Origin: Phycisphaerae bacterium
GTDB taxonomy: Bacteria; Planctomycetota; Phycisphaerae; SM23-33
Assembly: GCA_009783465.1 (NCBI GenBank)
Contig: WRDM01000008.1
Location: 2,943-66,942 of the forward strand
Direction: 5' to 3'
DNA: 64,000 nt
Below the pieces are notes generated by a model. The model did no database searches, had not been told where the DNA came from, and saw nothing but the letters and a program-made list of their open reading frames with translations. Position 1 is the stretch's first letter. Each line of letters begins with the position of its first letter. This document shows positions 840 to 63,010 of the stretch, in pieces. A program made the position numbers and the translations under genes.

Positions 840-2921
840 ATGCTGGGATTCCTCACATTCCTGGTGCCTGCGGTTCTGGGGGCTGCTGCGGCGGTGGCGG
901 CGCCGGTGGTGATTCATTTGTTGTTGCGGTCCAAGCCGCGGCAGGTGGTGTTTCCGGCGATGCGGTTTGTCCGCAAGACACAGTTGGCGAGTGTGTCCTC
1001 GCAGCGGCTGCGGCAGTTGATTCTGCTGGCGATGCGGATGTTGGTGATCGCGTTGGTGGTGGGGTTGGTCGCGCGGGCACAGTTGCCGGCGTTCAGCCAG
1101 GCGCCGGCGGAGGAACTGCCGTGCGACATGATCGTGATTGTCGACAACAGCGGCTCGATGAATTACCTTCAGGGCGGCGTCAGTCGGCTGGGCAAGGGCA
1201 AGCAGTTGGCCCGCGAGCGGATCGGTCGTCTGCCGGCGGGGTCGCGGGCGGCGGTCATGTGGGTGTCCGACCCGGCGGCGGGCGGGACGTTTCTGGACAC
1301 GTCGACGGCCGTCGGCGAGGTCGATCGCATCGAGCCCACATGGGGCGGTCAGGCGTTGGGCGATTGTCTCCGCCGGGCTGTTGAGTTGGCGGCGAAGGCA
1401 GACAGCGGCCGACGCAAGGAGATCGTGCTCGTCACCGACATGACCGGTCCGGCGTGGCGGGACGTGACGGCGGTCGGCGAAATCGACGCGTGGTTTGTCG
1501 TGCTCGATCCCACGCAGGGGCGGACGAATAATTTGTCGTTGAGCGAGCCGAAACTCAAGGCCAGTGCCGTGCCGGCGGGATCGTCGACGGAGTTGGCGGT
1601 CACGCTGGCCAGCGTGGGGATCGACGGCGAATGCATGGTTCGCCTTGACGTATCAGGCGAGGCGGTCGGTCAATGGGCCCGCGCGGTGCAGGACGGCGTG
1701 TCGTCGCGACTGTCGATGGAGGTTCGTCCGGCGCGGGAGGGCGTGGCGCAGGGTCAGGTTTCGCTGTCGCAGCCGGACAATCTGGAGCTGGACGACGTGC
1801 GGTATTTCACGGTGCGGGTTGGTGCGGCGGCGCGGGTGCTGGTGGTTCGCGACGGCGTGAACGTCGGGCGCGGCGATGCGACGAGCCGGCTGATGACGGC
1901 GGCGATCATGCCGGCCGGCTCGGGCGTGCGTGGCGAGGGCATCACCAGCGGGCCGTTGGGGCGGACGGATTTGTCGTCGTTCGACGGTGTGGTGCTGGCG
2001 AACGTGGCCGGGCTGACGCTCGAGCAGTGGGACGCGCTGGACGCGTACGTTCGCGGCGGGGGGCAGTTGTGGGTGGTGCCGGGCGACCTGGTGTCGGCGG
2101 CGGCGTACAACATTCGGCCAGCGCAGCGGCTGTTGCCGGCGACGCTGGGGGAGGTGCAGTCGCCGTCGGGCGGCGTTCGGCTGCGGGCGGCGGAACTGGA
2201 TCATCCGCTGGTGTCGCCGTTTGCTGGCGGGGAGAATCCGCCGCTGTCGGACGTGGTGGCGGCGCGTCGGTGGGCGATCGAGTCGCGTGCGGAGGACGCG
2301 GAGGTGGCGTTGGCGTACGCTGACGGCGTGCCGGCGATTCTGCGTCGGCCTGTCGGGCTTGGCGCGTGCGTGCTGTGGAATCTTTCGCCGGCGGGCGAAT
2401 TTTCCAACCTCGCGCCGCTCCAGCAGTTTCCGATTCTCGTGCAGCAGACGGTTCGGCTGATGGGGGCCGACCAGGACGCGCGGACGTTGTACAGGCTGGG
2501 CGAAACGGTGTACGTGCCGCTGCCGCGCCAGATGGCTTCGCCGGCGGTCGGCGTCCGCGGGCCCGGCCAGGCGGTAGAGACGGCGGAGGCGTTGCGTGGC
2601 GACGCGCGCGAATTGGCCATGACGGCCGACCGGGTGGGGCACTACGTCGTTTCGTTCACGCAGGACGGGCGGCGGCGGGAGTTCGGCTTCAGCGTGAACG
2701 CGCCGGAGGCAGAGAGTGACCTGGCCGTTGTGGCGGCGGAGCAGGTTCAAGACAAATTTCCCGCCGGCCGATTCCGCGTCCTCACGCCCGACCAGGCCAA
2801 CGACGCCGACGACCGAACCGTGAAAAAAAACCTGGATTTAACCGCTCCGCTGCTGTTGGCCTTATTCGCCCTGCTGACCGGCGAGGCGTTTTTCGCCAAC
2901 CGATTCTACAAACGCGCGTAA
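840..2921 (+). CDS. BatA-N-terminal/VWA-domain membrane protein
   Basis: ORF 822..2921, ATG at 840. N-terminal two-TM 'HLLLRSKPRQVVFPAMRF' (aerotolerance BatA-like). MIDAS-like 'VDNSGSM'. Confidence 0.75.
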   Translation: MLGFLTFLVPAVLGAAAAVAAPVVIHLLLRSKPRQVVFPAMRFVRKTQLASVSSQRLRQLILLAMRMLVIALVVGLVARAQLPAFSQAPAEELPCDMIVIVDNSGSMNYLQGGVSRLGKGKQLARERIGRLPAGSRAAVMWVSDPAAGGTFLDTSTAVGEVDRIEPTWGGQALGDCLRRAVELAAKADSGRRKEIVLVTDMTGPAWRDVTAVGEIDAWFVVLDPTQGRTNNLSLSEPKLKASAVPAGSSTELAVTLASVGIDGECMVRLDVSGEAVGQWARAVQDGVSSRLSMEVRPAREGVAQGQVSLSQPDNLELDDVRYFTVRVGAAARVLVVRDGVNVGRGDATSRLMTAAIMPAGSGVRGEGITSGPLGRTDLSSFDGVVLANVAGLTLEQWDALDAYVRGGGQLWVVPGDLVSAAAYNIRPAQRLLPATLGEVQSPSGGVRLRAAELDHPLVSPFAGGENPPLSDVVAARRWAIESRAEDAEVALAYADGVPAILRRPVGLGACVLWNLSPAGEFSNLAPLQQFPILVQQTVRLMGADQDARTLYRLGETVYVPLPRQMASPAVGVRGPGQAVETAEALRGDARELAMTADRVGHYVVSFTQDGRRREFGFSVNAPEAESDLAVVAAEQVQDKFPAGRFRVLTPDQANDADDRTVKKNLDLTAPLLLALFALLTGEAFFANRFYKRA

Positions 2922-3998
2922 TTCTTGTGGGGTCATATCGGGGGAGTAGTGGATGATCGCGCCGCGTTTGGCGGGGGAAGAGAAGAGGTAGTGGGCGATC
3001 AAGCCCAGGCGGTAGACGTCGGCGGTAGAGGTGGGCGAGGGCTGGGCGGCGGTGTCGCAAGCGGCGGCCATGGCGGCGAGTGTGGCGGCGAGTTGTTCGT
3101 CGGTGGGGGTTTGGCTGAGGGGGGCGATTTTCGTCACGGCGGGGCCGACGGCGAGGAAGACGTCCCGCCATTTTTTTGACGCCGCCGGTTGCACGAGAAT
3201 GAACCGCCACTGCTCCATCGGCCTGACGTGGGCGTAGTCTTCGTGGTCCAGCGTGCGAGTGCGGTCGAGTCGTTTTTTCAGGCCTGCCGCCCGCTCGAAT
3301 TCCGTCGCGTCGGCGGCCTGCCGCATGCGTTCCCGCAGCCGCGAGAGGAATGGTTCGCGTTGCCCGCTTGCGAAGGCGGCCGCCTCGGCGACCTGCTGGC
3401 GATATGGCTCCAGCGAGATCGCGCCGTGGCAAGGCCCGGTGCATCGGCCCATTTGCCAGTACGTGCACGCGGGCCCGTGGGGCGACTGCCGCAGGCACGC
3501 GACGTCGCGGCAAAGGTCGAACAGATCCTCAATGGTTTCGATGAATCCCCGGGCGGCCTGTCCGCTGGGAAAAGGCCCGACGGTCAGCCCGGCCTGCCCC
3601 GGCTGGCGGGTCCGCGAAAAATGCGGGAACTCCTCCGACGGGTCCACGTGCACCAGCCAGGCACGCCGCCAGGAGAGCAGCTCCGCGAACGAGGCCGGGA
3701 ACAGCGATCGGGCCAATTCCAGAAACGTCGCGTCGGCTTCCCAGTGGCTCGGCGTGAGCGTGTAGAGAATTTTCCGCGTGATCTGGCGAAGATCGGCGGA
3801 TTTGCGCCGCGTGTCGTCGGCAGGCTCGGCCAGGCGATGGCGAAGCCGGGCGCGAAGATCCGCCGCCGTCAACAGCAGAATGGGCGCGTCGCGTTCATCG
3901 GCCAACAACAGCACACCGCGCTTGGCGGGAATGTCCGCCAACGCCTCCTCACTCAACGGCGGCTCCACGGCGATTGCATGGGAAAACAACGTGTTCAT
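2862..3998 (-). CDS. UvrC N-terminal-like protein (degenerate GIY-YIG region, Cys-rich segment, UVR-like helix)
   Basis: ORF 2862..4103; the ATG at 3998 ('MNTLFSH') lies outside the hairpin repeat. 'CLRQSPHGPACTYWQMGRCTGPC' resembles the UvrC Cys cluster. 'EFERAAGLKKRL' is UVR-like. Confidence 0.5.
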   Translation of the reverse strand: MNTLFSHAIAVEPPLSEEALADIPAKRGVLLLADERDAPILLLTAADLRARLRHRLAEPADDTRRKSADLRQITRKILYTLTPSHWEADATFLELARSLFPASFAELLSWRRAWLVHVDPSEEFPHFSRTRQPGQAGLTVGPFPSGQAARGFIETIEDLFDLCRDVACLRQSPHGPACTYWQMGRCTGPCHGAISLEPYRQQVAEAAAFASGQREPFLSRLRERMRQAADATEFERAAGLKKRLDRTRTLDHEDYAHVRPMEQWRFILVQPAASKKWRDVFLAVGPAVTKIAPLSQTPTDEQLAATLAAMAAACDTAAQPSPTSTADVYRLGLIAHYLFSSPAKRGAIIHYSPDMTPQELRAFVESVGEKRLAGQQGE

Positions 3999-4030
3999 GG
4001 GTTTCGTTGCTCGATGGTGAAAACGTGCCG

Positions 4031-4208
4031 CGCGTTCGAGGGAACCTAGCCAGTAGCCAATAGCCAGTAGCCAATAGGTATGGGTAAATCTGTGGCGGAT
4101 CACACGATCCTGATTTTGACCACGCTCGTATCCATTCCCACGATCACTGCCAATTTCGCCGTTGTCTTTCCTTACCTACTGGCTACTGGCTTGGTTCCCT
4201 CGAACGCG
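4031..4208. repeat. HS-A hairpin element with TTCGAGGGAAC clamp; loop inverted relative to copies 1 and 3
   Basis: Clamp CGCGTTCGAGGGAACC / GGTTCCCTCGAACGCG. The arms are heptad arrays. The loop blocks are present as reverse complement. Confidence 0.85.
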
Positions 4209-16780: not shown

Positions 16781-16921
16781 GCGTCTGACGTGGCGAGGGC
16801 GTTTCGCCCTCGCGTCTCGCGGGCATCTTGCCCGCACCGGATAACGAAGTCGATTCGACGTTTTCCACTGACTAGGCCAATGGAGCACACAACGCGGGCG
16901 AGACGCCCGCGTCACGTGACG
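16781..16921. repeat. GC-rich palindromic element (GC-pal, CACGTGACGCGGGCG subtype), intergenic
   Basis: Three small hairpins: GGCGAGGGCG-TTT-CGCCCTCGC, GCGGGCA-TCT-TGCCCGC and GCGGGCG-AGA-CGCCCGC. Terminus CGTCACGTGAC. Confidence 0.75.
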
Positions 16922-22265: not shown

Positions 22266-23504
22266 CTACGGCGTTTCGAGGAGATTCTGCCAGCAGCACT
22301 TGGCCGTGACGTTGTGGCGGCGGCATATGTCCAGCAGTGGGGCGGTGATGGCGGATTGGGCGGTTGGCGGCAGTCGCCAGCTTCCGCCGCGGAAGGTCAG
22401 GCGTTCGGGCGGCTGGGATTCGTGGGCGATGGATTCGTAGAGGGTTCGCATGTGTCGCATCGTGGGCGAGAGCGGGCGGTTTCGCGGCTGGACGATTTTG
22501 GCCGTGGAATATACGACGTGACGGACGCCGACCTCTTTGGCGAACGCGACCAGCCGTTCCAGGTCGTCGAGCGTTTGCGGCCATTCTCGTGACGCGGGCG
22601 TCTCGCCCGCGTTGTGTGTTCCATGGGCTTGGCCGTTGAAAGACGAAAAATCTTTTTCATCGGCTGACGGCGAGGGCTGGAAGCCCTCGCGACACGCGGG
22701 CGAGACGCCCGCGTCACGTTTTTCGGCACGCGGGAACAGCGGGTCGATTCGCAGGACCACGTCCACGCCGGCCTGGCGGAGACGGCGGATGCCTGCAACG
22801 CGGTCTTCAACGCTCGGCGCGCCGGGATCATAGAGTTTCCTGGCCTCGTCACGCCAGAACGCCAGGCTGACCTCGAGGAGAAAACCAGGCCGTGGCGAGT
22901 TGTGTTTGGACGCGTGGAGTTTTCGGAACAGTTCGTCGCAGCCCAACTCCACGGCCAGGCGTGGATTTTTCGTCAGGACGACGACGCTCGTGAATCGGTT
23001 GCGATGGTCGAGGATCCGCCGCAGCGTCAGTCGCGTGTGGCCGGCGTCGGCTTCGAGCGGTTGAAACGCGTCGGTGCTGTTGGACAGATGAATCGGCGCG
23101 GGCGGGACGTTGAAGCGTTCCAGATCGGCGAGGTCCTTATCGAGCGACCGTGCGAAATCCCGCTTCACGCCCGCTTCGGACGGCTCGTATGCGGCGGCGT
23201 AACAGTACTCGCACGCGTGCGAACAGCCGGTGTAGACGTTGACGCAGTAGCGATGCCCGCTGGGAAAATACCGTTGGCTGGCGAACGGACAATACCACTT
23301 GACGACGCGAGGCCGCGTGGGGCAGAGCGTCGGCTTTTTCGATCCGTGCGGCAGAAAATACAACGCCATGGCCGCCTGCTCTCGCGGCGTTTTTTTTTGC
23401 CAGGCCGGCGCGTATTTTTCGTCGATCCGCCGAACCAGCGACAGGCCCTCATCGATGTGGGTTGAGTTGATTGAGAACAGGCTCAATCCGCCTCCTCCGG
23501 CCAC
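22266..23504 (-). CDS. radical SAM protein (COG1533 'DNA repair photolyase'/SplB-like) carrying an in-frame repeat insertion
   Basis: 'NVYTGCSHACEYCYA' is the CxxxCxxC cluster. The central ~44 aa are encoded by the palindromic element 22588..22718. Confidence 0.8.
   Translation of the reverse strand: MAGGGGLSLFSINSTHIDEGLSLVRRIDEKYAPAWQKKTPREQAAMALYFLPHGSKKPTLCPTRPRVVKWYCPFASQRYFPSGHRYCVNVYTGCSHACEYCYAAAYEPSEAGVKRDFARSLDKDLADLERFNVPPAPIHLSNSTDAFQPLEADAGHTRLTLRRILDHRNRFTSVVVLTKNPRLAVELGCDELFRKLHASKHNSPRPGFLLEVSLAFWRDEARKLYDPGAPSVEDRVAGIRRLRQAGVDVVLRIDPLFPRAEKRDAGVSPACREGFQPSPSADEKDFSSFNGQAHGTHNAGETPASREWPQTLDDLERLVAFAKEVGVRHVVYSTAKIVQPRNRPLSPTMRHMRTLYESIAHESQPPERLTFRGGSWRLPPTAQSAITAPLLDICRRHNVTAKCCWQNLLETP
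22588..22718. repeat. GC-pal element inserted in frame in the radical SAM gene
   Basis: Termini CGTGACGCGGGCGTCTCGCCCGCG / CGCGGGCGAGACGCCCGCGTCACG. Internal GGCGAGGGCTGGAAGCCCTCGC hairpin. Confidence 0.8.
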
Positions 23505-25924: not shown

Positions 25925-26105
25925 AACGTAGCACCGGGCGTCCCGCCCGTGAGTCGCATGGGCGTCTCGCCCATGCGACGCCCCAGCATGGGCGTCGTGG
26001 AGTTCGCGTGGGCGGTATAAGGGTTTCGCGTCACAAAATTTCAGCCAGCCGCTGCCACGGGCGAGACGCCCGTGGGACTCATGGGCGGGACGCCCATGCT
26101 ACGTT
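25925..26105. repeat. GC-pal element (GTAGCACGGGCG subtype), intergenic
   Basis: Arms of about 50 nt, each made of two CA(C/T)GGGCG-NNN-CGCCC(G/A)TG mini-palindromes. Termini AACGTAGCA / TGCTACGTT. Confidence 0.8.
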
Positions 26106-28430: not shown

Positions 28431-28550
28431 GTTAACTCGTTAACTGGTTGATTCGTTAACTCGCTAACGGGTCGACTAGCTAACTGATTGACTAGTTAAC
28501 TAGTTAACTAGTTAACTAGTTAACTAAAGCGTTTCCCTCGAACCACGGGT
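28431..28550. repeat. HS-E element (GTTAACNN octad arrays) with a right-hand GTTTCCCTCGAAC clamp
   Basis: GTTAACTC GTTAACTG ... then GTTAACTA x4. Arm pairing is imperfect. Confidence 0.65.
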
Positions 28551-31862: not shown

Positions 31863-32022
31863 CCCCCCGGCCCTCGTGATTCGAGGGTATCCATGAGCGT
31901 ATGGCAAGCAACGCAGACATCATTCGTCGCAAGTATGGTGTTTTCCCGGAGCTTCCTCTGAGTCGCAGCGCCTGTAGTAAAAAGTAGCGGTGCCTTCCGC
32001 GTCTCTGTGGTACATTCCCCCC

Positions 32023-34431
32023 ATGCCACAACACTACATCGACGCCATTCTGAAGTATCTCGCCGACCGCAGTTATCGCCCCGTCAAGCCGCGGCAGTTT
32101 GCGAGGCAGCTTGGCATTGACGACAACGAGTACGGCGCGTTTCGCGAGGCCGTCAAGCAGTTGCGTGACGAAGGCCGCGTCGTGCTCGGCGCCAACAACG
32201 CGCTGACGCTGCCGGAAATTTCCTCGCAAATCACGGGGTTTTACAGGCCGAATCCTCGCGGGTTCGGCTTCGTCATCCCGGAGACGCCCAACGCGCACGG
32301 GGATTTGTTCATTCCCGAAGGCTCCGCCGGCACGGCGATGGCGGGGGACCTGGTGGTCGCCCGCGTGTTTCATCAAGGCAAAAAAGCGGGCAAGGCCATG
32401 TATGCCGGCGAGATCATTCAGATCGTTCGTCGCGGGCGGAACCGCTTCGTGGGCACGATGGCGCGGGCCGACGACGGCACGTGGTTCGTCCTGCCCGACG
32501 GGGCGGCGATGACCCAGCCGATCGTCGTTCGCGACGTCTCCACCGCCAGCCCGAAGGCGGGCACGAAAGTCGTCGTCGAAATCACCGAGTATCCCAAGCC
32601 CGGCCGGCTGCCCATCGGCGTCATCGTCGAGCGGCTCGGCGAGGCCGGCGAACTTGACGTGGAAACGCGGGCCGTCATCCGCGCCCATGGTCTGTCGGAC
32701 GAATGGCCCGCCGCCGCGCTGACCGACGCCCGCGACGCCATCGCGGCGTTCGACCGTAGCACGGGCGTCTCGCCCGTGCCGTCTCGCGCCGCAAAGGAAA
32801 CGTCCGCTGTACGGACGGACCGCCACGGGCAAGATGCCCGTGCTACGGGTCGCGAGGACCTCACCGCGATGACCGTCGTCACGATCGATCCGCCCGACGC
32901 GCGGGATTACGACGACGCGATATCGATTCAGCCGGGGCCGGACGGCTCCGTTGTGCTGGGCGTGCACATCGCCGACGTGTCGCATTTCGTCCGCGAAGGC
33001 TCGGCGTTGGATCGCGAAGCCCGGCAGCGCGGCAACAGCACGTACTTCCCGCGACGCGTCGTGCCCATGCTGCCGGAAATTCTCTCCAACGGCGTGTGCA
33101 GTCTCCAGGCCGGCCAACGGCGATTCTGCAAGAGCGTGTTCATCCGTTACGACGACGAGGGCAACGTGCTCGGCACGCGATTCGCCGACAGCGTGATCCG
33201 CTCCGCCGGGAGGCTGACGTACATCGAGGCGCAGGGCATCATCGACCGTGGTGCGGGCATCTCACGTGACGCGGGCATCTTGCCCGCGTTGATCACGCCT
33301 GCGCCGTCAGCCAATGTTGACGGCAAATCCACGCACAACGCGGGCGAGACGCCCGCGTCACGTGAGACGCCACGGTCGGGCGGCTTCGCGCCTGGCGTCG
33401 CTGAACTCGTCCTTGCGATGAACGTGCTGGCGAAAACCATCGAAGCCCGTCGCCGCCGGGCCGGCATGCTGCACCTGGACCTGCCCGAAGTCGAACTGGT
33501 CTTCGACGAACAGGATCACGTCGTCGACGCGACGCCCCGCGACGATTCCTACACGCACACCGTCATCGAAATGTTCATGGTCGAAGCCAACGAAGCCGTC
33601 GCGACCCTGCTCGATCGGCTCGGCAGGCCTTGCGTGCGGCGAATCCACCCTCAGCCCGACGACGCCGGCGCCAAGCAGCTCCGCACGTTCGTGCACGCGT
33701 GCGGCCACAAGCTGCCGGGCAACCTCTCGCGGCGGGACATGCAGGAACTGCTCCGCGCCGTCCGCGGCAAGCCCGAAAGTTACGCGGTGAATCTGGCCCT
33801 GCTCAAAACGTTCGAGCAGGCGGTGTACAGTCCGATGACGGTCGGCCATTTTGCGCTGGCCAGCGAACATTACTGCCATTTCACGAGCCCGATCCGCCGC
33901 TACGCGGACCTGACGGTGCACCGCCTGCTGGGCGAGCACATTCGCGGCACGCTCGAAAGCAGGCCCGGCGAGGACAGGAGCGAACTGGTCCACCTCGGCG
34001 AAAATCTCACCGCGACGGAGCGCCGCAGCAAGGCGGCAGAGGATGAACTGCGCGAGGTGCTGATTCTCGAATTTCTCGCCACCAAAATCGGCGAGGATTT
34101 CGACGGCGTGGTGACGGGCGTGACGAGTTTCGGCCTGTTCGTGCAGTCGATGCGGTTCCTCATCGAGGGCCTGGTCCGGCTGGAGGATCTTGGCGACGAC
34201 TGGTGGGAAGTGGATCCGAAAACCGGCACGGTGGTCGGGGAGCGTACGCGGCGGAAGATACGGCTCGGCGACATGATGCGCGTCCGCATCGCCAGCGTGG
34301 ACATCGCCAAACGCCAACTCAACCTCTCGCCGACACGCGAGCGAAAGAGCGGACGGGTGACGAAAAAGGTGAAAAAACCAAACAAAAACAAGAAAACCTT
34401 CACATCTCGCAAGAAACGTCGAGGGCGGTGA
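32023..34431 (+). CDS. rnr: ribonuclease R with two in-frame repeat insertions
   Basis: 'YRPVKPRQFARQLG' N-terminus, RNB core 'TIDPPDARDYDDAISI' and 'HFALASEHYCHFTSPIRRYADL', S1 domain and a basic tail. Confidence 0.9.
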   Translation: MPQHYIDAILKYLADRSYRPVKPRQFARQLGIDDNEYGAFREAVKQLRDEGRVVLGANNALTLPEISSQITGFYRPNPRGFGFVIPETPNAHGDLFIPEGSAGTAMAGDLVVARVFHQGKKAGKAMYAGEIIQIVRRGRNRFVGTMARADDGTWFVLPDGAAMTQPIVVRDVSTASPKAGTKVVVEITEYPKPGRLPIGVIVERLGEAGELDVETRAVIRAHGLSDEWPAAALTDARDAIAAFDRSTGVSPVPSRAAKETSAVRTDRHGQDARATGREDLTAMTVVTIDPPDARDYDDAISIQPGPDGSVVLGVHIADVSHFVREGSALDREARQRGNSTYFPRRVVPMLPEILSNGVCSLQAGQRRFCKSVFIRYDDEGNVLGTRFADSVIRSAGRLTYIEAQGIIDRGAGISRDAGILPALITPAPSANVDGKSTHNAGETPASRETPRSGGFAPGVAELVLAMNVLAKTIEARRRRAGMLHLDLPEVELVFDEQDHVVDATPRDDSYTHTVIEMFMVEANEAVATLLDRLGRPCVRRIHPQPDDAGAKQLRTFVHACGHKLPGNLSRRDMQELLRAVRGKPESYAVNLALLKTFEQAVYSPMTVGHFALASEHYCHFTSPIRRYADLTVHRLLGEHIRGTLESRPGEDRSELVHLGENLTATERRSKAAEDELREVLILEFLATKIGEDFDGVVTGVTSFGLFVQSMRFLIEGLVRLEDLGDDWWEVDPKTGTVVGERTRRKIRLGDMMRVRIASVDIAKRQLNLSPTRERKSGRVTKKVKKPNKNKKTFTSRKKRRGR
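32756..32846. repeat. GC-pal element (GTAGCACGGGCG subtype) in frame in rnr
   Basis: GTAGCACGGGCGTCTCGCCCGTGC ... CCACGGGCAAGATGCCCGTGCTAC. Confidence 0.8.
33261..33366. repeat. GC-pal element (CACGTGACGCGGGC subtype) in frame in rnr
   Basis: CTCACGTGACGCGGGCATCTTGCCCGCGTT ... AACGCGGGCGAGACGCCCGCGTCACGTGAG. Confidence 0.8.
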
Positions 34432-34435
34432 GGAT

Positions 34436-34537
34436 GTGTAAATTTGGCTTGCCTCTTTGCGATGTAAGACGTTGTGGACTACAAAACGTTTGTAGTCCAC
34501 AACGTCTTACGGCGCAAAGAGGCAAGCCAAATTTACG
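34436..34537. repeat. ~100-bp near-perfect palindrome between convergent genes (probable bidirectional terminator)
   Basis: GTGTAAATTTGGCTTGCCTCTTTGCGATGTAAGACGTTGTGGACTACAAAACGTTTGTAGTCCACAACGTCTTACGGCGCAAAGAGGCAAGCCAAATTTACG. Confidence 0.8.
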
Positions 34538-45498: not shown

Positions 45499-45638
45499 CG
45501 TCGCATGGGCGTCCCGCCCATGAGTCCCACGGGCATCTTGCCCGTGGTGGCCTGTCTGGAGTACAAACGGTTCGTCTACAGGCTGGCGTTGCATGGGCGA
45601 GACGCCCATGCGACTCACGGGCAAGATGCCCGTGCTAC
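45499..45638. repeat. GC-pal element (GTAGCACGGGCG subtype), intergenic
   Basis: GCATGGGCGTCCCGCCCATGAGTCCCACGGGCATCTTGCCCGTGG ... GCATGGGCGAGACGCCCATGCGACTCACGGGCAAGATGCCCGTGCTAC. Confidence 0.8.
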
Positions 45639-45649
45639 GACGGAGCGAT

Positions 45650-46666
45650 ATGACGGAACTGAACATCCTGTTCACGTGCGCCGGGCGGCGTGTCGCCTTG
45701 ATGGAGACGTTTCGGCAGGCCTTGGCGGCGGTGGGGGCGCGCGGGAAACTATTGGCCGTCGATGCCACGGCCGCCTCGCCGGCATACCATAAAGCCGACG
45801 TCGGCCTGCTCGCGCCGCGCACGCGCGACGAGGCGTACATTCCCACGCTGCTGGAGTACGTGCGCCGCCATCGTGTCGCCCTGCTGGTGCCGATGACCGA
45901 TCTGGATCTGCTGCCGTTGGCGAGGCGGCGGGAGGAGTTCGCCCAGGCCGGCTGTACTGTGATGGTCGGCAGCGAATCCGCCGTGGCCGTCTGTTCGAGC
46001 AAGTCCGCCGTCAACGACGCCATCGCCCGCGCGGGGCTGGACACCGTGCACACGGCCGCGCTCGACGAATTTTTCGCCGCGCCGTTTTATCCGTGTTTCG
46101 CCAAGCCGACGCACGGCTCGGCCGGCGTGGGGGCCCTCCGCGTCGAGAACGAAAACCAACTCCGCCAGCACGTCGCGGCGCACGGGCGGGACCTGGTGGT
46201 GCAGGAATATCTCGACGGGCAGGAGTACACGATCGACGTCTACCGCAGCCGCGACGGCCTGGTGCGGAGCGTCGTGCCGCGGCAGCGGTTGCTGGTCCGT
46301 AGCGGCGAGGTGGAAAAAGGCGTGACGGTCCGCGACGACGGATTGATCGACGCCGGGCGGCGGCTTGGCGAAGCGGTCGAGGGGCTGTGGGGCGCCTTCT
46401 GCTGCCAGTGCCGCCGCGAGCGCGACGAGGGGCGCATCCGCTTTTTCGAAATCAATCCGCGGTTCGGCGGAGGCATGCCGCTGTCCATCGCCGCCGGCGC
46501 CAACCTGCCGCTCTACCTGTTACAGGAAGTCCTCGGCCTGCCCATCACCGCGCGACTGGGCGACTTCACCGACCGCCTCCTCATGCTCCGCTACGACGAG
46601 GCCGTGTACACGCAAGTGGATGACCCACGTGAATTGCCAGGATATGATAAGCCGCAGTTTCGATAG
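45650..46666 (+). CDS. ATP-grasp domain enzyme (polysaccharide-cluster type)
   Basis: ATG at 45650, downstream of the repeat. 'FAKPTHGSAGVG', 'VVQEYLDGQEYTIDV' and 'FFEINPRFGGG'. Confidence 0.7.
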   Translation: MTELNILFTCAGRRVALMETFRQALAAVGARGKLLAVDATAASPAYHKADVGLLAPRTRDEAYIPTLLEYVRRHRVALLVPMTDLDLLPLARRREEFAQAGCTVMVGSESAVAVCSSKSAVNDAIARAGLDTVHTAALDEFFAAPFYPCFAKPTHGSAGVGALRVENENQLRQHVAAHGRDLVVQEYLDGQEYTIDVYRSRDGLVRSVVPRQRLLVRSGEVEKGVTVRDDGLIDAGRRLGEAVEGLWGAFCCQCRRERDEGRIRFFEINPRFGGGMPLSIAAGANLPLYLLQEVLGLPITARLGDFTDRLLMLRYDEAVYTQVDDPRELPGYDKPQFR

Positions 46667-49654: not shown

Positions 49655-51058
49655 ATGGCACGCGTGGTTCAGCGACGCAGCACCCCCCCGTATCTCCTGA
49701 TTGTTTTTGTGTTTTTGTTCCTGATCGCCACCGTGGTGGCCGTCCTGATGTATCTCAAGAGCGACGAACTCACCGCGCAGTTGGCGGCTGAGAAGGACAA
49801 GACCAAGGCGGTCGGCACCACGGAAGAACTGAACGCCGCCAGGGCGTTGGCCAGCGGGGCCCCGAAGGGCACGTCCTACCTGAAGGCCTATCAGGACGAG
49901 TTGAGGAAACTCGCCCAACTCGTCGATTCCCGCGCCACCGCTGCCGACGCGTACGGCCGCGTGGAGAATCTCGACGTGGCCGAGCCGTTCACCAAGAACA
50001 AGGGTGTGCTTCCCCTGGTCGACGACCTCAAGGAGGCGTTGACGGCCAAGGATGTGACCATCCGCGAACTGACCGGGAAGTTCGATCTTGCCAGGGAGAA
50101 TCAGGCCAAGGCCGAGCAGGCCCTTGAGGCCGTCTCGGACATGGTCAAGGAATTGCAGGCCCAGAGCGAAGCCGGCACCGCGAAGGTCGTCGCGGACATC
50201 GCGAACCTGAAAGAAGCCGACGCCGCCGAACGGCAGGAGATCCGGCGGGAGTTGGAGAAGAAGCAGGCCGACATCATGAACCAGGTGGTTCAACTGGAGG
50301 CGGAGAAGCGAGGGCTTCACCGGCGAATCGCCGACCTCGAACGCGACAAGCAGGAAATCGTCGACGCCAAGCGGGAAGCCGCCGCCCAGATGAGGGTCTC
50401 GGAAAACATCGCGTCTTCCATGACCAATCAGCCCGCCGGAAAAATCATGAAGGTGTACGACGACACCGTATACATCAACCTGGGCAAGAACGACAAGGTG
50501 CTGCCGACCATGACGTTCTCCATCTACCCGGCCGGGCCTGTCACGGATGAGAACAAGCTTAAGGGCACGCTGGAGATTCTCCAGGTCAGCGACACCACGT
50601 CGGAGTGCCGCATTACCAATCGCTACGCCTCCTCCGGGACGATCACGGCTGGCGACATCATCGGCAACATCACCTTCGTCCGCAACCGGACGTTCGTTTT
50701 CGTCGTCAAGGGCGGGTTCGACATGAGTGGTTCCGGCAGGGCCACCGCCGAAGGCGCCTCCGCCATCCGGGACATGGTTGTCCGCAACGGCGGGAAGCTG
50801 ATGGACAATGTCACGATCGCGACCGATATCCTCGTCATTGGCGCCGAGCCGCCCACGCCCCCCAGGCCTGGCGACGATGCCACCGAAGCGGAAATCGACA
50901 TCTTCACCCAGCAAATGCAGGTCGTGCGGGAGTACAACAAGGCCATCGAAGAGGCCGACAAGTACAAAATCCCCATCCTGAACGCCAACCGCTTCATGGC
51001 CCTGATCGGCCACCAGCCAGGCAGCGTCGAATTGCCCAGACTCGTCCAGGGCAACTAG
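49655..51058 (+). CDS. membrane-anchored coiled-coil protein
   Basis: N-terminal TM, long coiled coil, C-terminal globular (BRCT-like?) domain. Confidence 0.55.
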   Translation: MARVVQRRSTPPYLLIVFVFLFLIATVVAVLMYLKSDELTAQLAAEKDKTKAVGTTEELNAARALASGAPKGTSYLKAYQDELRKLAQLVDSRATAADAYGRVENLDVAEPFTKNKGVLPLVDDLKEALTAKDVTIRELTGKFDLARENQAKAEQALEAVSDMVKELQAQSEAGTAKVVADIANLKEADAAERQEIRRELEKKQADIMNQVVQLEAEKRGLHRRIADLERDKQEIVDAKREAAAQMRVSENIASSMTNQPAGKIMKVYDDTVYINLGKNDKVLPTMTFSIYPAGPVTDENKLKGTLEILQVSDTTSECRITNRYASSGTITAGDIIGNITFVRNRTFVFVVKGGFDMSGSGRATAEGASAIRDMVVRNGGKLMDNVTIATDILVIGAEPPTPPRPGDDATEAEIDIFTQQMQVVREYNKAIEEADKYKIPILNANRFMALIGHQPGSVELPRLVQGN

Positions 51059-51089
51059 CGCACAGGTTGTGCACAACTCATGATAATGC

Positions 51090-51120
51090 AAAACGCCCCG
51101 GAAACGGGGCGTTTTGTGTT
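51090..51120 (+). terminator. intrinsic terminator
   Basis: AAAACGCCCCG-GAAA-CGGGGCGTTTT followed by GTGTT, 31 nt after the stop at 51058. Confidence 0.65.
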
Positions 51121-51335: not shown

Positions 51336-51881
51336 CTATTTTTTCTTTTTCTTGTCGTCGGCCATGGCTTCGAGGGCGGAGAAGATGTCGTCGTCATCGC
51401 CGTCATCGCTGCCGGCTTCGCCGAGTTGGGCCAGCGCGTCGGCGGCGTCATCGTCGTCTTCGTCGAGGACGATGGCTTCTTCCTCGTCGTCGACGTCGAG
51501 TTCGACGACTTCGTCGTCATCGTCGGCCATCGGGGCCGCGGCGGATTTTTTCTTCTTCGTTGCCGCCGGGGCCGTCACGCCTGCCGGCTTGCCGTCGAGT
51601 TGCACGACGAACGAGACAGGCCCGAGCGTCAGCAGGTCGCCCGCCCGCAGCGGCGACTCCGTCACGCGTTTGTTGTTGACGAACGTGCCGTTGGACGACC
51701 CCAGATCGGCGACGACCAGTTTGCCGCCCTCGATCCGCAGTTCGCAGTGCCGCCGGCTGACATCCGTCAACGGCACACGGAGGTCGCACTCATCGCCGCG
51801 CCCCACGATGGTGACGTCGCCCGCCACGGGAAAATCTTTGCGCTGACCATTGGCCTTGAACATTACGAGTTTTACGTCCAT
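51336..51881 (-). CDS. FHA-domain protein with acidic/basic tail
   Basis: 'IVGRGDECDLRV..VSRRHCEL...DLGSSNGTFVNN' is the FHA core. Confidence 0.8.
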   Translation of the reverse strand: MDVKLVMFKANGQRKDFPVAGDVTIVGRGDECDLRVPLTDVSRRHCELRIEGGKLVVADLGSSNGTFVNNKRVTESPLRAGDLLTLGPVSFVVQLDGKPAGVTAPAATKKKKSAAAPMADDDDEVVELDVDDEEEAIVLDEDDDDAADALAQLGEAGSDDGDDDDIFSALEAMADDKKKKK

Positions 51882-51958
51882 GATTCACCTATGTCGCCGC
51901 ACGGGAAAGGGTTTTACCGAACACCGAAACCTGAACACGAACTTCACGCATTGTAAAA

Positions 51959-53248
51959 ATGACCAACGCGCCCTGCAAACAAAATAGCGACGGACTTTCG
52001 TATCTTCCGCCAGGAGCATTATATCTCCATGTGCCGTTCTGTCTGGCCAAGTGTCGATATTGCGATTTTTATTCCCGTCCCATCCGCGCCGCCGACGCGG
52101 ACCGTTACACTGCCGCCGTTACGCGGCAGTTGCGACGGCTATGTAGCACGGGCGTCTCGCCCGTGAGTCGCATGGGCGTCCCGCCCATGCAAAACCAACC
52201 TGTCGGCGAAACGTGCGACCATGGCCAGATCGCTATGGGCGAGACGCCCGTGCTGCGGACGCCTCTGGCGACGGTGTTCCTCGGCGGCGGCACGCCGACG
52301 GCCCTTGGCGGGGAGCGGCTTGGGGACATTTTTCGCGCCGTCGCGCCGCTGTGCGACGCCCGCACGGAAATCTCCGTCGAAGCCAATCCCGGCGCGTTCG
52401 ACGGGCCGCTGGCGCGTCGGCTGATCGCGGCGGGCGTCAATCGCGTGAATATCGGCGTGCAGTCGTTTCAAGGCGACGAATTGGCCGTGCTGGGCCGTCT
52501 GCACGACGCCGCGGCGGCGAGGCACGCGGTGGCCCTCGCGAGGGACGCGGGGTTCGCGAATGTCGGCATCGACCTCATGTACGGCCTGCCGGGCCAAACG
52601 TTGGCGTCCTGGCGGGATTCGCTGCGGCAGGCGTTCGATCTGGGCGTGGAGCACCTCAGCGGCTACGCGTTGAGCATCGAGCCAGGCACGCCGCTGCACG
52701 CCGATTGGCAGGCCGGCGCGGTCGAGGAGATGGACGAAACCCTGCAACGTGAGATGTACTACGCGATGATCGAGCAGGCCGGCGGGGCGGGGTTGGCACA
52801 CTATGAAATGTCCAATTTCGCCAGGCCCGGTTTTGCGTGCCGACACAATCTGACGTACTGGCACAATTGGCCGTACCTTGGCCTTGGCCCGGCGGCGGCG
52901 AGTTACATGGCCGGCGTGCGTCGCACGAATCGCCCGGACGCCGACGCGTGGGCGACGGCGGTGCTGGCGGATCGGCCCCCGCCCGCGGACGAAGAGCGGC
53001 TGCCGCGGCATCTCCGCATGGCCGAGACGTTGATGCTAGGCCTTCGCCTGACGGCGGGCGTGGATCGGTCCGCCTTCGCGTCGCGTTTTGGCCTGGACGC
53101 ATTGGCCGCCTTCCCGCACTCCCTGCCACGCTACGCCGCGCAAGGCGCACTGCTCATCGAGGCCACGCACATCCGCCTGGCGAGTTGGGCGCTGTTCGGC
53201 GCGGACACGATTTTGGCGGATATCGTCGAGGAGGGGCGGCGAGAGTAG
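51959..53248 (+). CDS. hemW: radical SAM heme chaperone/coproporphyrinogen-oxidase-like protein with in-frame repeat insertion
   Basis: 'LYLHVPFCLAKCRYCDFYS', 'VFLGGGTPT' and 'NIGVQSF'. About 38 extra aa between the cluster and GGGTP are encoded by 52143..52256. Confidence 0.8.
   Translation: MTNAPCKQNSDGLSYLPPGALYLHVPFCLAKCRYCDFYSRPIRAADADRYTAAVTRQLRRLCSTGVSPVSRMGVPPMQNQPVGETCDHGQIAMGETPVLRTPLATVFLGGGTPTALGGERLGDIFRAVAPLCDARTEISVEANPGAFDGPLARRLIAAGVNRVNIGVQSFQGDELAVLGRLHDAAAARHAVALARDAGFANVGIDLMYGLPGQTLASWRDSLRQAFDLGVEHLSGYALSIEPGTPLHADWQAGAVEEMDETLQREMYYAMIEQAGGAGLAHYEMSNFARPGFACRHNLTYWHNWPYLGLGPAAASYMAGVRRTNRPDADAWATAVLADRPPPADEERLPRHLRMAETLMLGLRLTAGVDRSAFASRFGLDALAAFPHSLPRYAAQGALLIEATHIRLASWALFGADTILADIVEEGRRE
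52143..52256. repeat. GC-pal element (GTAGCACGGGCG subtype) in frame in the hemW-like gene
   Basis: GTAGCACGGGCGTCTCGCCCGTGAGTCGCATGGGCGTCCCGCCCATGC ... TATGGGCGAGACGCCCGTGCTGC. Confidence 0.8.
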
Positions 53249-53335
53249 CGATCAGAAGCACAGCCAATCGGGTTGTTTTGCGCCCAAGTCGTACGTACAA
53301 TTACACGATAGATGATACGTACAGGAGTTGCGACG

Positions 53336-53587
53336 ATGCAAAAACTCACGCTCAGTATGGACCCGGAAGTGATTGACATGGCCAAGCAATTGGCCAAACA
53401 ACGAGGTATCAGCGCTTCGGAAATGATTAGCCGGATCATCCGGGTGATGGCAGACCCAGAACGTCCCGCCCGAATTGGCCCCCTGACTCGGCAGGCCACC
53501 GGTATGTTTAAGCTTCCCGAAGGAAAGTCTGTCGAGGAACTGATTGAAGAGGCGAAAGCGGAACGGGCGGCGAGATATCTACGATGA
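53336..53587 (+). CDS. type II antitoxin (RHH/DUF6364-like)
   Basis: 83 aa. 'LSMDPEVIDMAKQLAKQRGISASEMISRII'. ATGA overlap with the PIN gene. Confidence 0.6.
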   Translation: MQKLTLSMDPEVIDMAKQLAKQRGISASEMISRIIRVMADPERPARIGPLTRQATGMFKLPEGKSVEELIEEAKAERAARYLR

Positions 53588-55903: not shown

Positions 55904-55977
55904 AGGCGGCGGTGGGATTCGAACCCACGAATGAGCGATTTGCAATCGCTTCCCTTGGTCCGCTTGGGTACGCCGCC
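55904..55977 (-). tRNA. tRNA-Cys (anticodon GCA)
   Basis: Hand-folded 74-nt cloverleaf: acceptor GGCGGCG/CGCCGCC, anticodon stem AGCGA/TCGCT with loop TTGCAAA, T-arm GTGGG-TTCGAAT-CCCAC. Confidence 0.85.
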
Positions 55978-62590: not shown

Positions 62591-63010
62591 ATGGCGATGA
62601 TGCCAAAACGAATCAAGTACCGTAAGATGCAGCGTGGCAAGATGCCCGGCATGGCCACGCGAGGCAATACGGTTTCTTACGGTGAATACGGCCTCCAGAG
62701 CATGATGGCGGCATGGATTTCCGGCAAGCATCTGGAAGCCGGTCGCGTGGCGGCGACGCACTTCCTGCACCGCGAAGGCCGCGTGTATATTCGCGTCTTC
62801 CCGGACAAACCGATCTCCGCCAAGCCGCTGGAAGTCCGCATGGGCACCGGCAAGGGCGAGACGGACGACTGGGTGGTTCCGATCAAGCCGGGCACGATTC
62901 TGTTCGAGGTGGGCGGCGTGGATGAAGCCACCGCCAAGGGCGCGCTGCGTCGCATCGCGGCCAAGATGCCCGTGAAATGCCGCCTGATTCACCGACGACA
63001 TGGCCACTAA
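62591..63010 (+). CDS. rplP: 50S ribosomal protein L16
   Basis: 'MPKRIKYRKMQRG'. The start could instead be 62597. Confidence 0.95.
   Translation: MAMMPKRIKYRKMQRGKMPGMATRGNTVSYGEYGLQSMMAAWISGKHLEAGRVAATHFLHREGRVYIRVFPDKPISAKPLEVRMGTGKGETDDWVVPIKPGTILFEVGGVDEATAKGALRRIAAKMPVKCRLIHRRHGH

Follow-up and report, generated by a model that had tools for sequence, protein, structure and literature searches.

The gene for the radical S-adenosylmethionine (SAM) heme chaperone HemW on contig WRDM01000008.1 of a Phycisphaerae bacterium carries, between the codons of its CxxxCxxC and GGGTP motifs, an in-frame palindromic element of 114 bp. It was analysed within a 64,000-nt stretch of that contig, referred to below as the window. 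The element is very probably a copy of a GTAG-tagged repetitive extragenic palindrome (REP) in the inverted, paired form called REPIN, most likely integrated by a REP-associated Y1/HUH transposase (RAYT) and tolerated as selfish DNA rather than maintained as a functional module of HemW.

The course of events proposed here is that a non-autonomous, multi-copy, GC-rich palindromic repeat built from inverted REP hairpins would have integrated into the codons of the loop joining helix α1 and strand β2 of HemW, the most likely enzyme being a RAYT acting on single-stranded hairpin DNA. The copy may have survived by virtue of a length that is a multiple of three bases, a stop-free reading frame and a peptide that can be accommodated as a disordered loop. 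It would persist as tolerated selfish DNA, with HemW staying under purifying selection; the insert is presumably transcribed and translated, and presumably without effect on HemW function.

Architecture of the element in hemW

The outer arms of the element form a perfect 18-nt inverted repeat, AGCACGGGCGTCTCGCCC at 52145-52162 and GGGCGAGACGCCCGTGCT at 52237-52254, whose two copies are placed 74 nt apart by a repeat finder. Two hairpins follow one another in the left half, the second with a core stem that can be written (G)CATGGGCG-TCC-CGCCCATG(C), and a single inverted hairpin closes the right half (Table 1). All three resemble the short, GC-rich stem-loops that make up REP units of 20-40 bp, with stems of 8-9 bp and loops of 3 nt. 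Furthermore, the arrangement of two inverted REPs around a spacer gives rise to the long hairpin typical of REPINs: a 127-nt stretch folds by pairing of the arms, with a free energy of -74.9 kcal/mol as RNA (z = -7.0) and a z-score of -6.1 as DNA. The extent of the element, from GTAG to CTGC, coincides exactly with positions 52143-52256 of the original prediction, which had also ascribed the surplus length of the protein to a palindromic element; the repeat finder supports this attribution, with a net gain of 36 residues instead of the 37 first estimated. Codon position bias does not separate the insert from its host gene, the GC content at third codon positions (GC3) being 0.79 in both. An Rfam scan of the window returned no family on the element, its sole match being a tRNA gene at 55904-55977 on the minus strand.

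Table 1. Coordinates of the hemW locus, of the parts of the inserted element and of the related copies in the window
Feature	Positions	Strand	Basis and remarks
hemW coding sequence, host gene	51959-53248	+	Single uninterrupted open reading frame (ORF), 429 aa plus stop
CxxxCxxC [4Fe-4S] motif (C28, C32, C35)	52040-52063	+	Sequence and translation; invariant columns of the 102-sequence alignment
Inserted REP/REPIN-type element, subtype A (E7)	52143-52256		GTAG head to degenerate CTGC tail; net 36 codons
Left REP unit 1	52143-52165	+	GTAG tag (52143-52146) and hairpin CACGGGCG-TCT-CGCCCGTG (52147-52165); repeat finder, motif search
Left REP unit 2	52170-52190	+	Hairpin GCATGGGCG-TCC-CGCCCATGC; repeat finder, hairpin census
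Spacer, 43 nt	52191-52233		Contains what is left of a second, decayed right-hand hairpin; aligned with E3 and E6
Right REP unit, inverted	52234-52256	-	Hairpin with one stem mismatch (52234-52252), tail CTGC (consensus CTAC); repeat finder, alignment
GGGTP motif, aa 109-113, end of strand β2	52283-52297	+	Sequence, alignment, AlphaFold2 model
E1, subtype B, intergenic	16789-16918		Census, alignment
E2, subtype B, in frame in SPL-type radical-SAM gene 22266-23504 (-)	22588-22719		Census, alignment
E3, subtype A, intergenic	25926-26105		Census, alignment
E4, subtype A, in frame in RNase R gene 31990-34431 (+)	32756-32850		Census, alignment
E5, subtype B, second in-frame insert of RNase R gene 31990-34431 (+)	33264-33364		Census, alignment
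E6, subtype A, intergenic	45499-45638		Census, alignment

A repeat family in the window

The hemW insert belongs to a family that is strongly overrepresented in the window. The motif CAYGGGCGNNNCGCCCRTG, allowing at most one mismatch, has 10 matches against 0.04 expected, and the wider motif CRYGGGCRNNNYGCCCRYG has 21 against 0.54 expected, a number that none of 100 shuffles reached; at least three of these 21 hairpin-pattern matches lie outside elements and are due to chance or unverified. A hairpin census combined with inspection resolved seven elements of two subtypes. The match at 62956 was considered as an element and rejected, as it is native coding sequence (…AAKMPVK…).

Subtype A, represented by E3, E4, E6 and the hemW copy E7, has the head CGTAGCA followed by CAYGGGCG…, whereas subtype B, represented by E1, E2 and E5, has CGTGACG followed by CGGGCG…, and the stems of the two subtypes differ by compensatory changes. 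Among the four subtype-A copies, which together have eight outer ends, six ends carry the exact GTAG/CTAC tag, and the right end of the hemW copy (CTGC) is one change away from CTAC; subtype B has GTGA in place of GTAG. The subtype-A copies align over their arms, and stretches of 19-23 nt are identical between the hemW insert and other copies in the window. This alignment includes the intergenic copies E3 and E6 and thereby bears out their earlier assignment to the same subtype. Within subtype B, E1 and E2 are alignable across most of the spacer too, and the shorter E5 mainly over the arms.

The GTAG head, the GC-rich hairpin, the inverted dimers and the presence of several sub-families together place the element among the GTAG-tagged REPs/REPINs, which are defined by this combination of features (PMC3733652; PMC3116915). 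Seven elements and 21 pattern matches in 64 kb agree with the dispersed, multi-copy nature of REPs; their extragenic location does not hold for the four of the seven copies that lie within genes and in frame, which is compatible with membership given that intragenic REPs have been published as exceptions (PMC3733652).

One intergenic copy is relevant to the annotation of its neighbour: the longest ORF of an ATP-grasp-like gene downstream of E6 begins inside the REP (MGETPMRLTGKMPVL…; 45593-45650), and the true start is probably the methionine of MTELNILF near 45650.

Beyond the window, at least 120 metagenome stretches contain the exact 23-mer comprising head and hairpin (52143-52165). Most family members there are intergenic; at least 8 of 148 matches to the 23-mer lie in coding-like frames, among them genes for AspRS, SelB, a Ser/Thr kinase and AlaRS.

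Three states of one loop among HemW orthologues

The insertion was placed in context by comparison with Phycisphaerae/Planctomycetota HemW proteins, mostly of 390-400 residues. At 90% identity the HemW protein clusters only with gene calls of its own locus, three in number, and the closest HemW from a GTDB representative genome is 54% identical. Closer relatives come from two metagenome loci, L081 and L084, which are syntenic with the window and have the same FHA-domain gene upstream of hemW. The protein from L081 (P0003) is the closest orthologue, with 80% amino acid identity, and its site is empty, with RQLRGLAAPHPLATVF as the loop sequence against RQLRRLCSTGVSPV…GETPVLRTPLATVF in the window. 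The spacing from CRYCDFYS to FLGGGTP is accordingly 31 residues in P0003 and 67 in the window HemW, a surplus of 36 residues (108 nt); the spacing had been put too high, at about 72, in the original prediction. In the protein from L084 (P0002, 78% identity) this loop is occupied by a subtype-B element, at most a few codons away from the position of the window insertion and with full-length homology to E1 and E2. P0002 is the only one among 119 other orthologues with an insert of at least 10 residues in this loop.

An alignment of orthologues had been proposed at the outset as a check, and its outcome favours the original prediction in that the nearest orthologue lacks the insert exactly at this loop. 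Orthologues equally long and devoid of the palindrome, which would have counted against that prediction, were not found, since the single occupied site among the 119 holds a REP of the other subtype.

The loop thus exists in three states, namely empty, occupied by subtype A and occupied by subtype B. The three HemW lineages are nearly equidistant (dS, the synonymous divergence, 0.52-0.71) and consequently gain is not polarised against loss; the radical-SAM gene suggests a topology differing from that of HemW. The presence of two subtypes in one loop requires at least two events, either independent insertions or the exchange of one element for another.

Several further features of HemW loci were observed in the course of this comparison. 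The subtype-B element of P0002 (L084 4262-4507) is tandemly duplicated, with two 123-bp units of 41 codons each that differ by one mismatch, which reflects either a recent duplication or an assembly effect. A 41-residue insert in another HemW (P0086) is not palindromic, so that long inserts in HemW are not always repeat elements. Two other Phycisphaerae HemW genes have long in-frame palindromic inserts at other positions and from unrelated repeat families, one with 63-nt arms (P0053; L205 932-1120) and one with 27-nt terminal inverted repeats (P0077; L207 2299-2420). Finally, subtype-A-like hairpins adjoin hemW in Planctomycetota metagenome-assembled genomes whose HemW is 52-54% identical (L001 2019-2135; L006 4770-4812); conservation of a REP sequence across such deep divergence is expected if it co-evolves with RAYTs.

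The host protein and the predicted position of the insert

The product of the host gene reaches 257 bits on NCBIfam TIGR00539 ('radical SAM family heme chaperone HemW'), above the cut-off of 205.4. It contains the Pfam domains Radical_SAM (PF04055) and HemN_C (PF06969) and no others, and the best Protein Data Bank (PDB) match of its model is HemN (1OLT, TM-score 0.75), all of which confirms the HemW-like assignment made initially. The TIGR00539 match is split into two stretches, the second beginning at residue 100, which corresponds to profile position 49, and the REP element lies inside the gap. Every invariant column of the 102-sequence alignment is retained. Taking into account a ratio of nonsynonymous to synonymous divergence (dN/dS) of 0.18-0.27 for the shared and flanking HemW codons in the three related lineages, sequence comparison indicates that HemW is under purifying selection.

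Phycisphaerae HemW proteins have a common conserved N-terminal extension, M..PCKQN.D..S (window 51959-52000; L081 2640-2700; L084 4040-4075). In L081 this stretch is conserved as DNA, but its frame differs from the rest of hemW; this could reflect a frameshift, a sequencing error or a non-coding role.

The structure prediction suggested with the original observation was carried out with AlphaFold2 on the 102-sequence alignment and gave a confident model, with a mean predicted local distance difference test score (pLDDT) of 92.1 and a predicted TM-score (pTM) of 0.89. Low confidence is confined to residues 1-6 and approximately 65-100 (pLDDT 43-70). The insert shows no predicted secondary structure and lies between helix 44-64 (α1) and strand 105-110 (β2), and it is therefore predicted to be a disordered loop joining these two elements. 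In radical-SAM barrels, α-to-β connections are found at the N-terminal ends of the strands, with the cluster and SAM bound at the opposite end. By analogy, the insert loop probably points away from the [4Fe-4S]/SAM site.

The peptide encoded by the insert is rich in Gly, Pro, Val, Ser and Thr. Of the three forward frames of the element, two are interrupted, by TAG in the head or by TGA in the GTGAGTC linker, and one is open throughout. This open frame is the one used by the hemW copy and by seven of the nine intragenic subtype-A heads that were read, and it gives S-T/M-G-V/I-S/P/L-P-V/M. A survivorship filter suffices to account for the in-frame state, because a copy inserted in another phase would yield a truncated protein and be purged by selection.

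Other in-frame copies

The behaviour of the hemW copy is shared by three further elements of the window. The RNase R gene, encoding 813 residues, holds both E4 and E5 in frame. When its product is aligned to B. subtilis RNase R (PDB 8cdu), the alignment is interrupted at query residues 250-287 and 417-476, the regions that include the two elements, and the score of the gene on TIGR02063 (592 bits) falls slightly below the cut-off of 597.85. E2 forms an in-frame insert of about 44 residues in the SPL-type radical-SAM gene. All three, E2, E4 and E5, coincide with alignment gaps relative to homologues.

The SPL-type radical-SAM gene also parallels hemW in the variable occupancy of its site. An orthologue about 80% identical (P0125, L209) has an empty site, and another (P0124, L208) carries a subtype-B element at the E2 site in the opposite orientation, which results either from an independent insertion or from an in-place inversion between the arms. 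Two loops are thus occupied repeatedly, the HemW α1-β2 loop with subtype A or B depending on the lineage, and the SPL-type radical-SAM loop with subtype B in opposite orientations in two lineages.

Link to RAYT transposases

Nunvar is said to have described, in 2010, GTAG-tagged REP elements together with RAYT (TnpA_REP) transposases. The same association is found in loci related to the window. In the metagenome locus L183, subtype-A REP dimers flank a Y1_Tnp domain with the HUH motif PNHVHVVV and the Y motif YVLSNPERAGL; this segment has 3608 homologues, many of them named 'REP element-mobilizing transposase RayT' by JGI. Furthermore, the RayT homologues of L210, L211 and L212, the last from a Phycisphaeraceae genome, are also flanked by subtype-A-like hairpins. 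Mobilisation of the family by RAYT is thus well supported; a RAYT would presumably also mobilise it within the present genome.

Some of these transposase genes themselves lie within host genes. In L183 (2951-5452, minus strand), a REP-RayT-REP unit is situated in frame inside alaS and adds about 260 residues, with AlaRS continuing seamlessly on either side. In L210 (~1650-3977) and L211 (~1750-4100), two independent samples, such a unit lies between the CN_hydrolase and NAD_synthase domains of nadE; the two RayT proteins are 83% and 74% identical, and the junctions are in frame where the contigs are not broken by indels. These units represent either a new intragenic lifestyle of RAYTs or repeat-induced misassembly, which is possible for any single contig and less likely for the nadE arrangement, seen twice. 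A literature search for intragenic RAYTs, or for REPs in Planctomycetes proteins, returned general papers only, and such cases may have been overlooked so far.

A broader proposal is that the REP-RAYT system of this Phycisphaerae clade has an intragenic lifestyle, in which REPINs land in, or are replaced within, the same permissive loops of housekeeping proteins in sister lineages and whole REP-RayT-REP units reside in frame in essential genes. This is offered tentatively and seems somewhat doubtful on present evidence. If true, it would imply that the transposase is translated as part of a host protein or shielded from deletion by its host, in a somewhat intein-like manner, that occupied or structurally predisposed sites are targeted in a homing-like fashion, and that a domesticated transposase has a new route to persistence.

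Weighing of alternative explanations

A number of points weigh against the interpretation of the insert as a tolerated, RAYT-borne REPIN. Inspection of the flanks of the elements revealed neither a target-site duplication nor a shared target motif, and no RAYT was detected in the 64-kb window, either by a Y-motif regular expression in six frames or by tblastn with the RAYT of L183. The loop itself varies from one orthologue to another, which leaves the exact boundaries of the hemW insertion ambiguous to within a few bases. The orientation of the loop away from the active site is drawn from general radical-SAM TIM-barrel topology and not from a measured distance. Moreover, a truncated or inactive product is possible because two of the three public gene callers start inside the insert. 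Finally, the occupancy of the loop in two of three related lineages could indicate a preferred target, or that occupancy is advantageous.

The last point leads to exaptation, in which HemW would have gained a new property from the REP loop, for example a surface for partner binding or regulation, or the mRNA hairpin would regulate translation or decay, so that selection keeps the loop occupied. The filling of the HemW loop with two different subtypes in two of the three lineages speaks for it, as do the SPL-type radical-SAM loop, filled in both the window and L208, and the very stable RNA structure of -74.9 kcal/mol. However, the peptides of the two HemW occupants share nothing beyond GVSP and GETP, which the hairpins encode, no insert is present in this loop in the closest orthologue or in 117 others, the loop is predicted to be disordered, and the same element is found in unrelated proteins and in intergenic DNA. 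Exaptation is consequently considered unlikely.

Damage to the gene is considered quite unlikely. According to this explanation hemW would be a young pseudogene, or would be expressed only from an internal ATG (M72 or M77) without the CxxxCxxC motif. The public gene calls at the locus (P0001/P0121/P0122) differ accordingly, with 429 aa at NCBI, 358 aa at ENA and 353 aa at JGI; the ENA and JGI calls start inside the insert, at methionines encoded by REP hairpins, and drop CxxxCxxC, and a 23-bp mRNA stem could hinder ribosomes. Against this, the full 429-aa frame is open and is the one called by NCBI, conservation extends over the 60 residues that precede the insert, among them the N-terminal PCKQN.D motif and the three cluster cysteines, and dN/dS is about 0.2. 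Other housekeeping genes of the window with comparable inserts, those for RNase R and the SPL-type radical-SAM protein, also stay open.

An assembly artefact, in which a metagenome assembler would have mis-threaded a dispersed repeat into hemW, is conceivable for what is apparently a metagenome contig of about 85 kb with a multi-copy element, but it is very improbable. The flanks are contiguous halves of one gene and in phase, the spacer and the decayed right arm are unique and hence not copied from another locus of the window, and the same phenomenon is present in independent assemblies of related organisms (L084, L208, L134 and L203). An ancient, lineage-specific HemW loop that is palindromic by coincidence and not mobile DNA would fit the variable length of this loop among orthologues and is refuted by the exact 19-23 nt matches to other copies in the window, the 23-mer in at least 120 metagenome stretches and the empty site in the closest orthologue, so that its probability is practically negligible.

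Three further candidates were rejected outright: an intein, given that Pfam finds no Hint domain and the insert has only 36 residues; a self-splicing intron, given the lack of an Rfam match on the element; and translational bypassing, given that the insert contains no in-frame stop to call for it.

Additional features of the window

A scan of 51800-53400 for promoters and terminators revealed nothing relevant to the insert. Further upstream, a terminator-like, GC-rich hairpin with a 12-bp stem, CAAAACGCCCCG-GAAA-CGGGGCGTTTTG, is located at 51089-51116, after the ORF 49655-51058. A perfect hairpin with a 22-bp stem (GTAAGACGTTGTGGACTACAAA-CGT-…) at 34464-34510, 33 nt past the RNase R stop, has no relation to the REP family and could be either a terminator or a repeat of another kind. 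Positions 28491-28526 hold a short tandem array of palindromic units, (ACTAGTTA)n, which is unusually AT-rich relative to the 63% GC of the window.

Implications

Systematic mis-annotation is likely in REP-rich Planctomycetota genomes, because the short hemW calls lose the iron-sulfur motif and the doubly invaded RNase R falls under its family cut-off. In turn, the in-frame copies show naturally which loops of radical-SAM enzymes and RNase R tolerate insertions, and the three allele states of a single loop could be used to study REPIN target choice and whether excision is precise. The presence of RayT within alaS and nadE could, if confirmed, bear on the persistence of RAYTs. The intragenic RayT genes and the repeated occupation of the same loops merit further study.

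Comparison with known systems

The element shares most of its features with the REPs and REPINs described by Bertels and Rainey (2011, PMC3116915) and Di Nocera (2013, PMC3733652): a GC-rich stem-loop with a stem of 8-9 bp and a loop of 3-5 nt, a GTAG tetranucleotide at the outer end, inverted dimers with spacers of 20-100 nt and the capacity to form a long hairpin, several sub-families per genome with compensatory stem changes, and RayT genes flanked by the same hairpins (here in L183 and L210-L212). It differs in that the hemW copy and three others are intragenic and in frame, whereas REPs are extragenic by name and by rule, in that subtype B has GTGA and not GTAG, and in that the window has no RAYT.

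The closest precedent is provided by the intragenic GTAG/CGTC REPs that Di Nocera et al. (2013) reported in several species, most numerous in Opitutus terrae, a member of the PVC superphylum, and in R. conorii; they typically encode 20-30 residues, and some genes have two (PMC3733652). In both cases in-frame singletons or dimers encoding 20-30 or more residues are found inside genes for known proteins, two inserts can be present in one gene (RNase R here), and PVC hosts are included. The present case differs in the host class, Phycisphaerae, in the REP sequence and in the invaded proteins, HemW, RNase R and an SPL-type radical-SAM enzyme. It is distinguished further by the documentation of an orthologue whose site is empty, of a second subtype occupying that loop and of a predicted structure.

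Rickettsia palindromic elements (RPEs), the first in-frame palindromic repeats described in protein genes (Ogata et al. 2000, Science, as cited in PMC3184786 and PMC3733652), have a CGTC tag and no known dedicated transposase (PMC3733652). They are palindromes of about 100-150 bp located in frame in many unrelated protein genes, retained in the product at fold-compatible positions and regarded as selfish. The hemW insert is likewise in frame and at a fold-compatible position, a resemblance in behaviour that does not prove membership. In contrast to RPEs, whose host is an AT-rich, obligate intracellular alphaproteobacterium, subtype A is tagged with GTAG instead of CGTC and resides in a Phycisphaerae genome with 63% GC. 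We know of no sequence relationship between RPEs and the hemW element, and the two are likened by behaviour alone.

More distant similarities exist to other mobile sequences. Repeats resembling miniature inverted-repeat transposable elements (ERIC/YPAL, Correia, BOX/RUP/SPRITE; PMC3184786, PMC10969869) are also small, non-autonomous inverted repeats that are occasionally in frame with host ORFs; unlike the hemW element, they derive from DDE-type insertion sequences, have target-site duplications and fuse mostly at gene ends. Mini-inteins likewise are in-frame selfish inserts in essential-type genes, but they self-splice and comprise a Hint domain no shorter than about 130 residues, whereas the insert described here has 36 residues and is defined by a DNA palindrome.

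Intragenic REPs and RPEs have thus already been published, and the kind of event is known, being unusually frequent in this genome. What is new is the host clade, the REP sequence, the high intragenic share of copies in the window, the three-state loop (empty, A or B), the structure prediction and the consequences for annotation. In-frame colonisation of proteins by REPs, known earlier from Rickettsia, Opitutus and some Proteobacteria, is thereby extended to Phycisphaerae.

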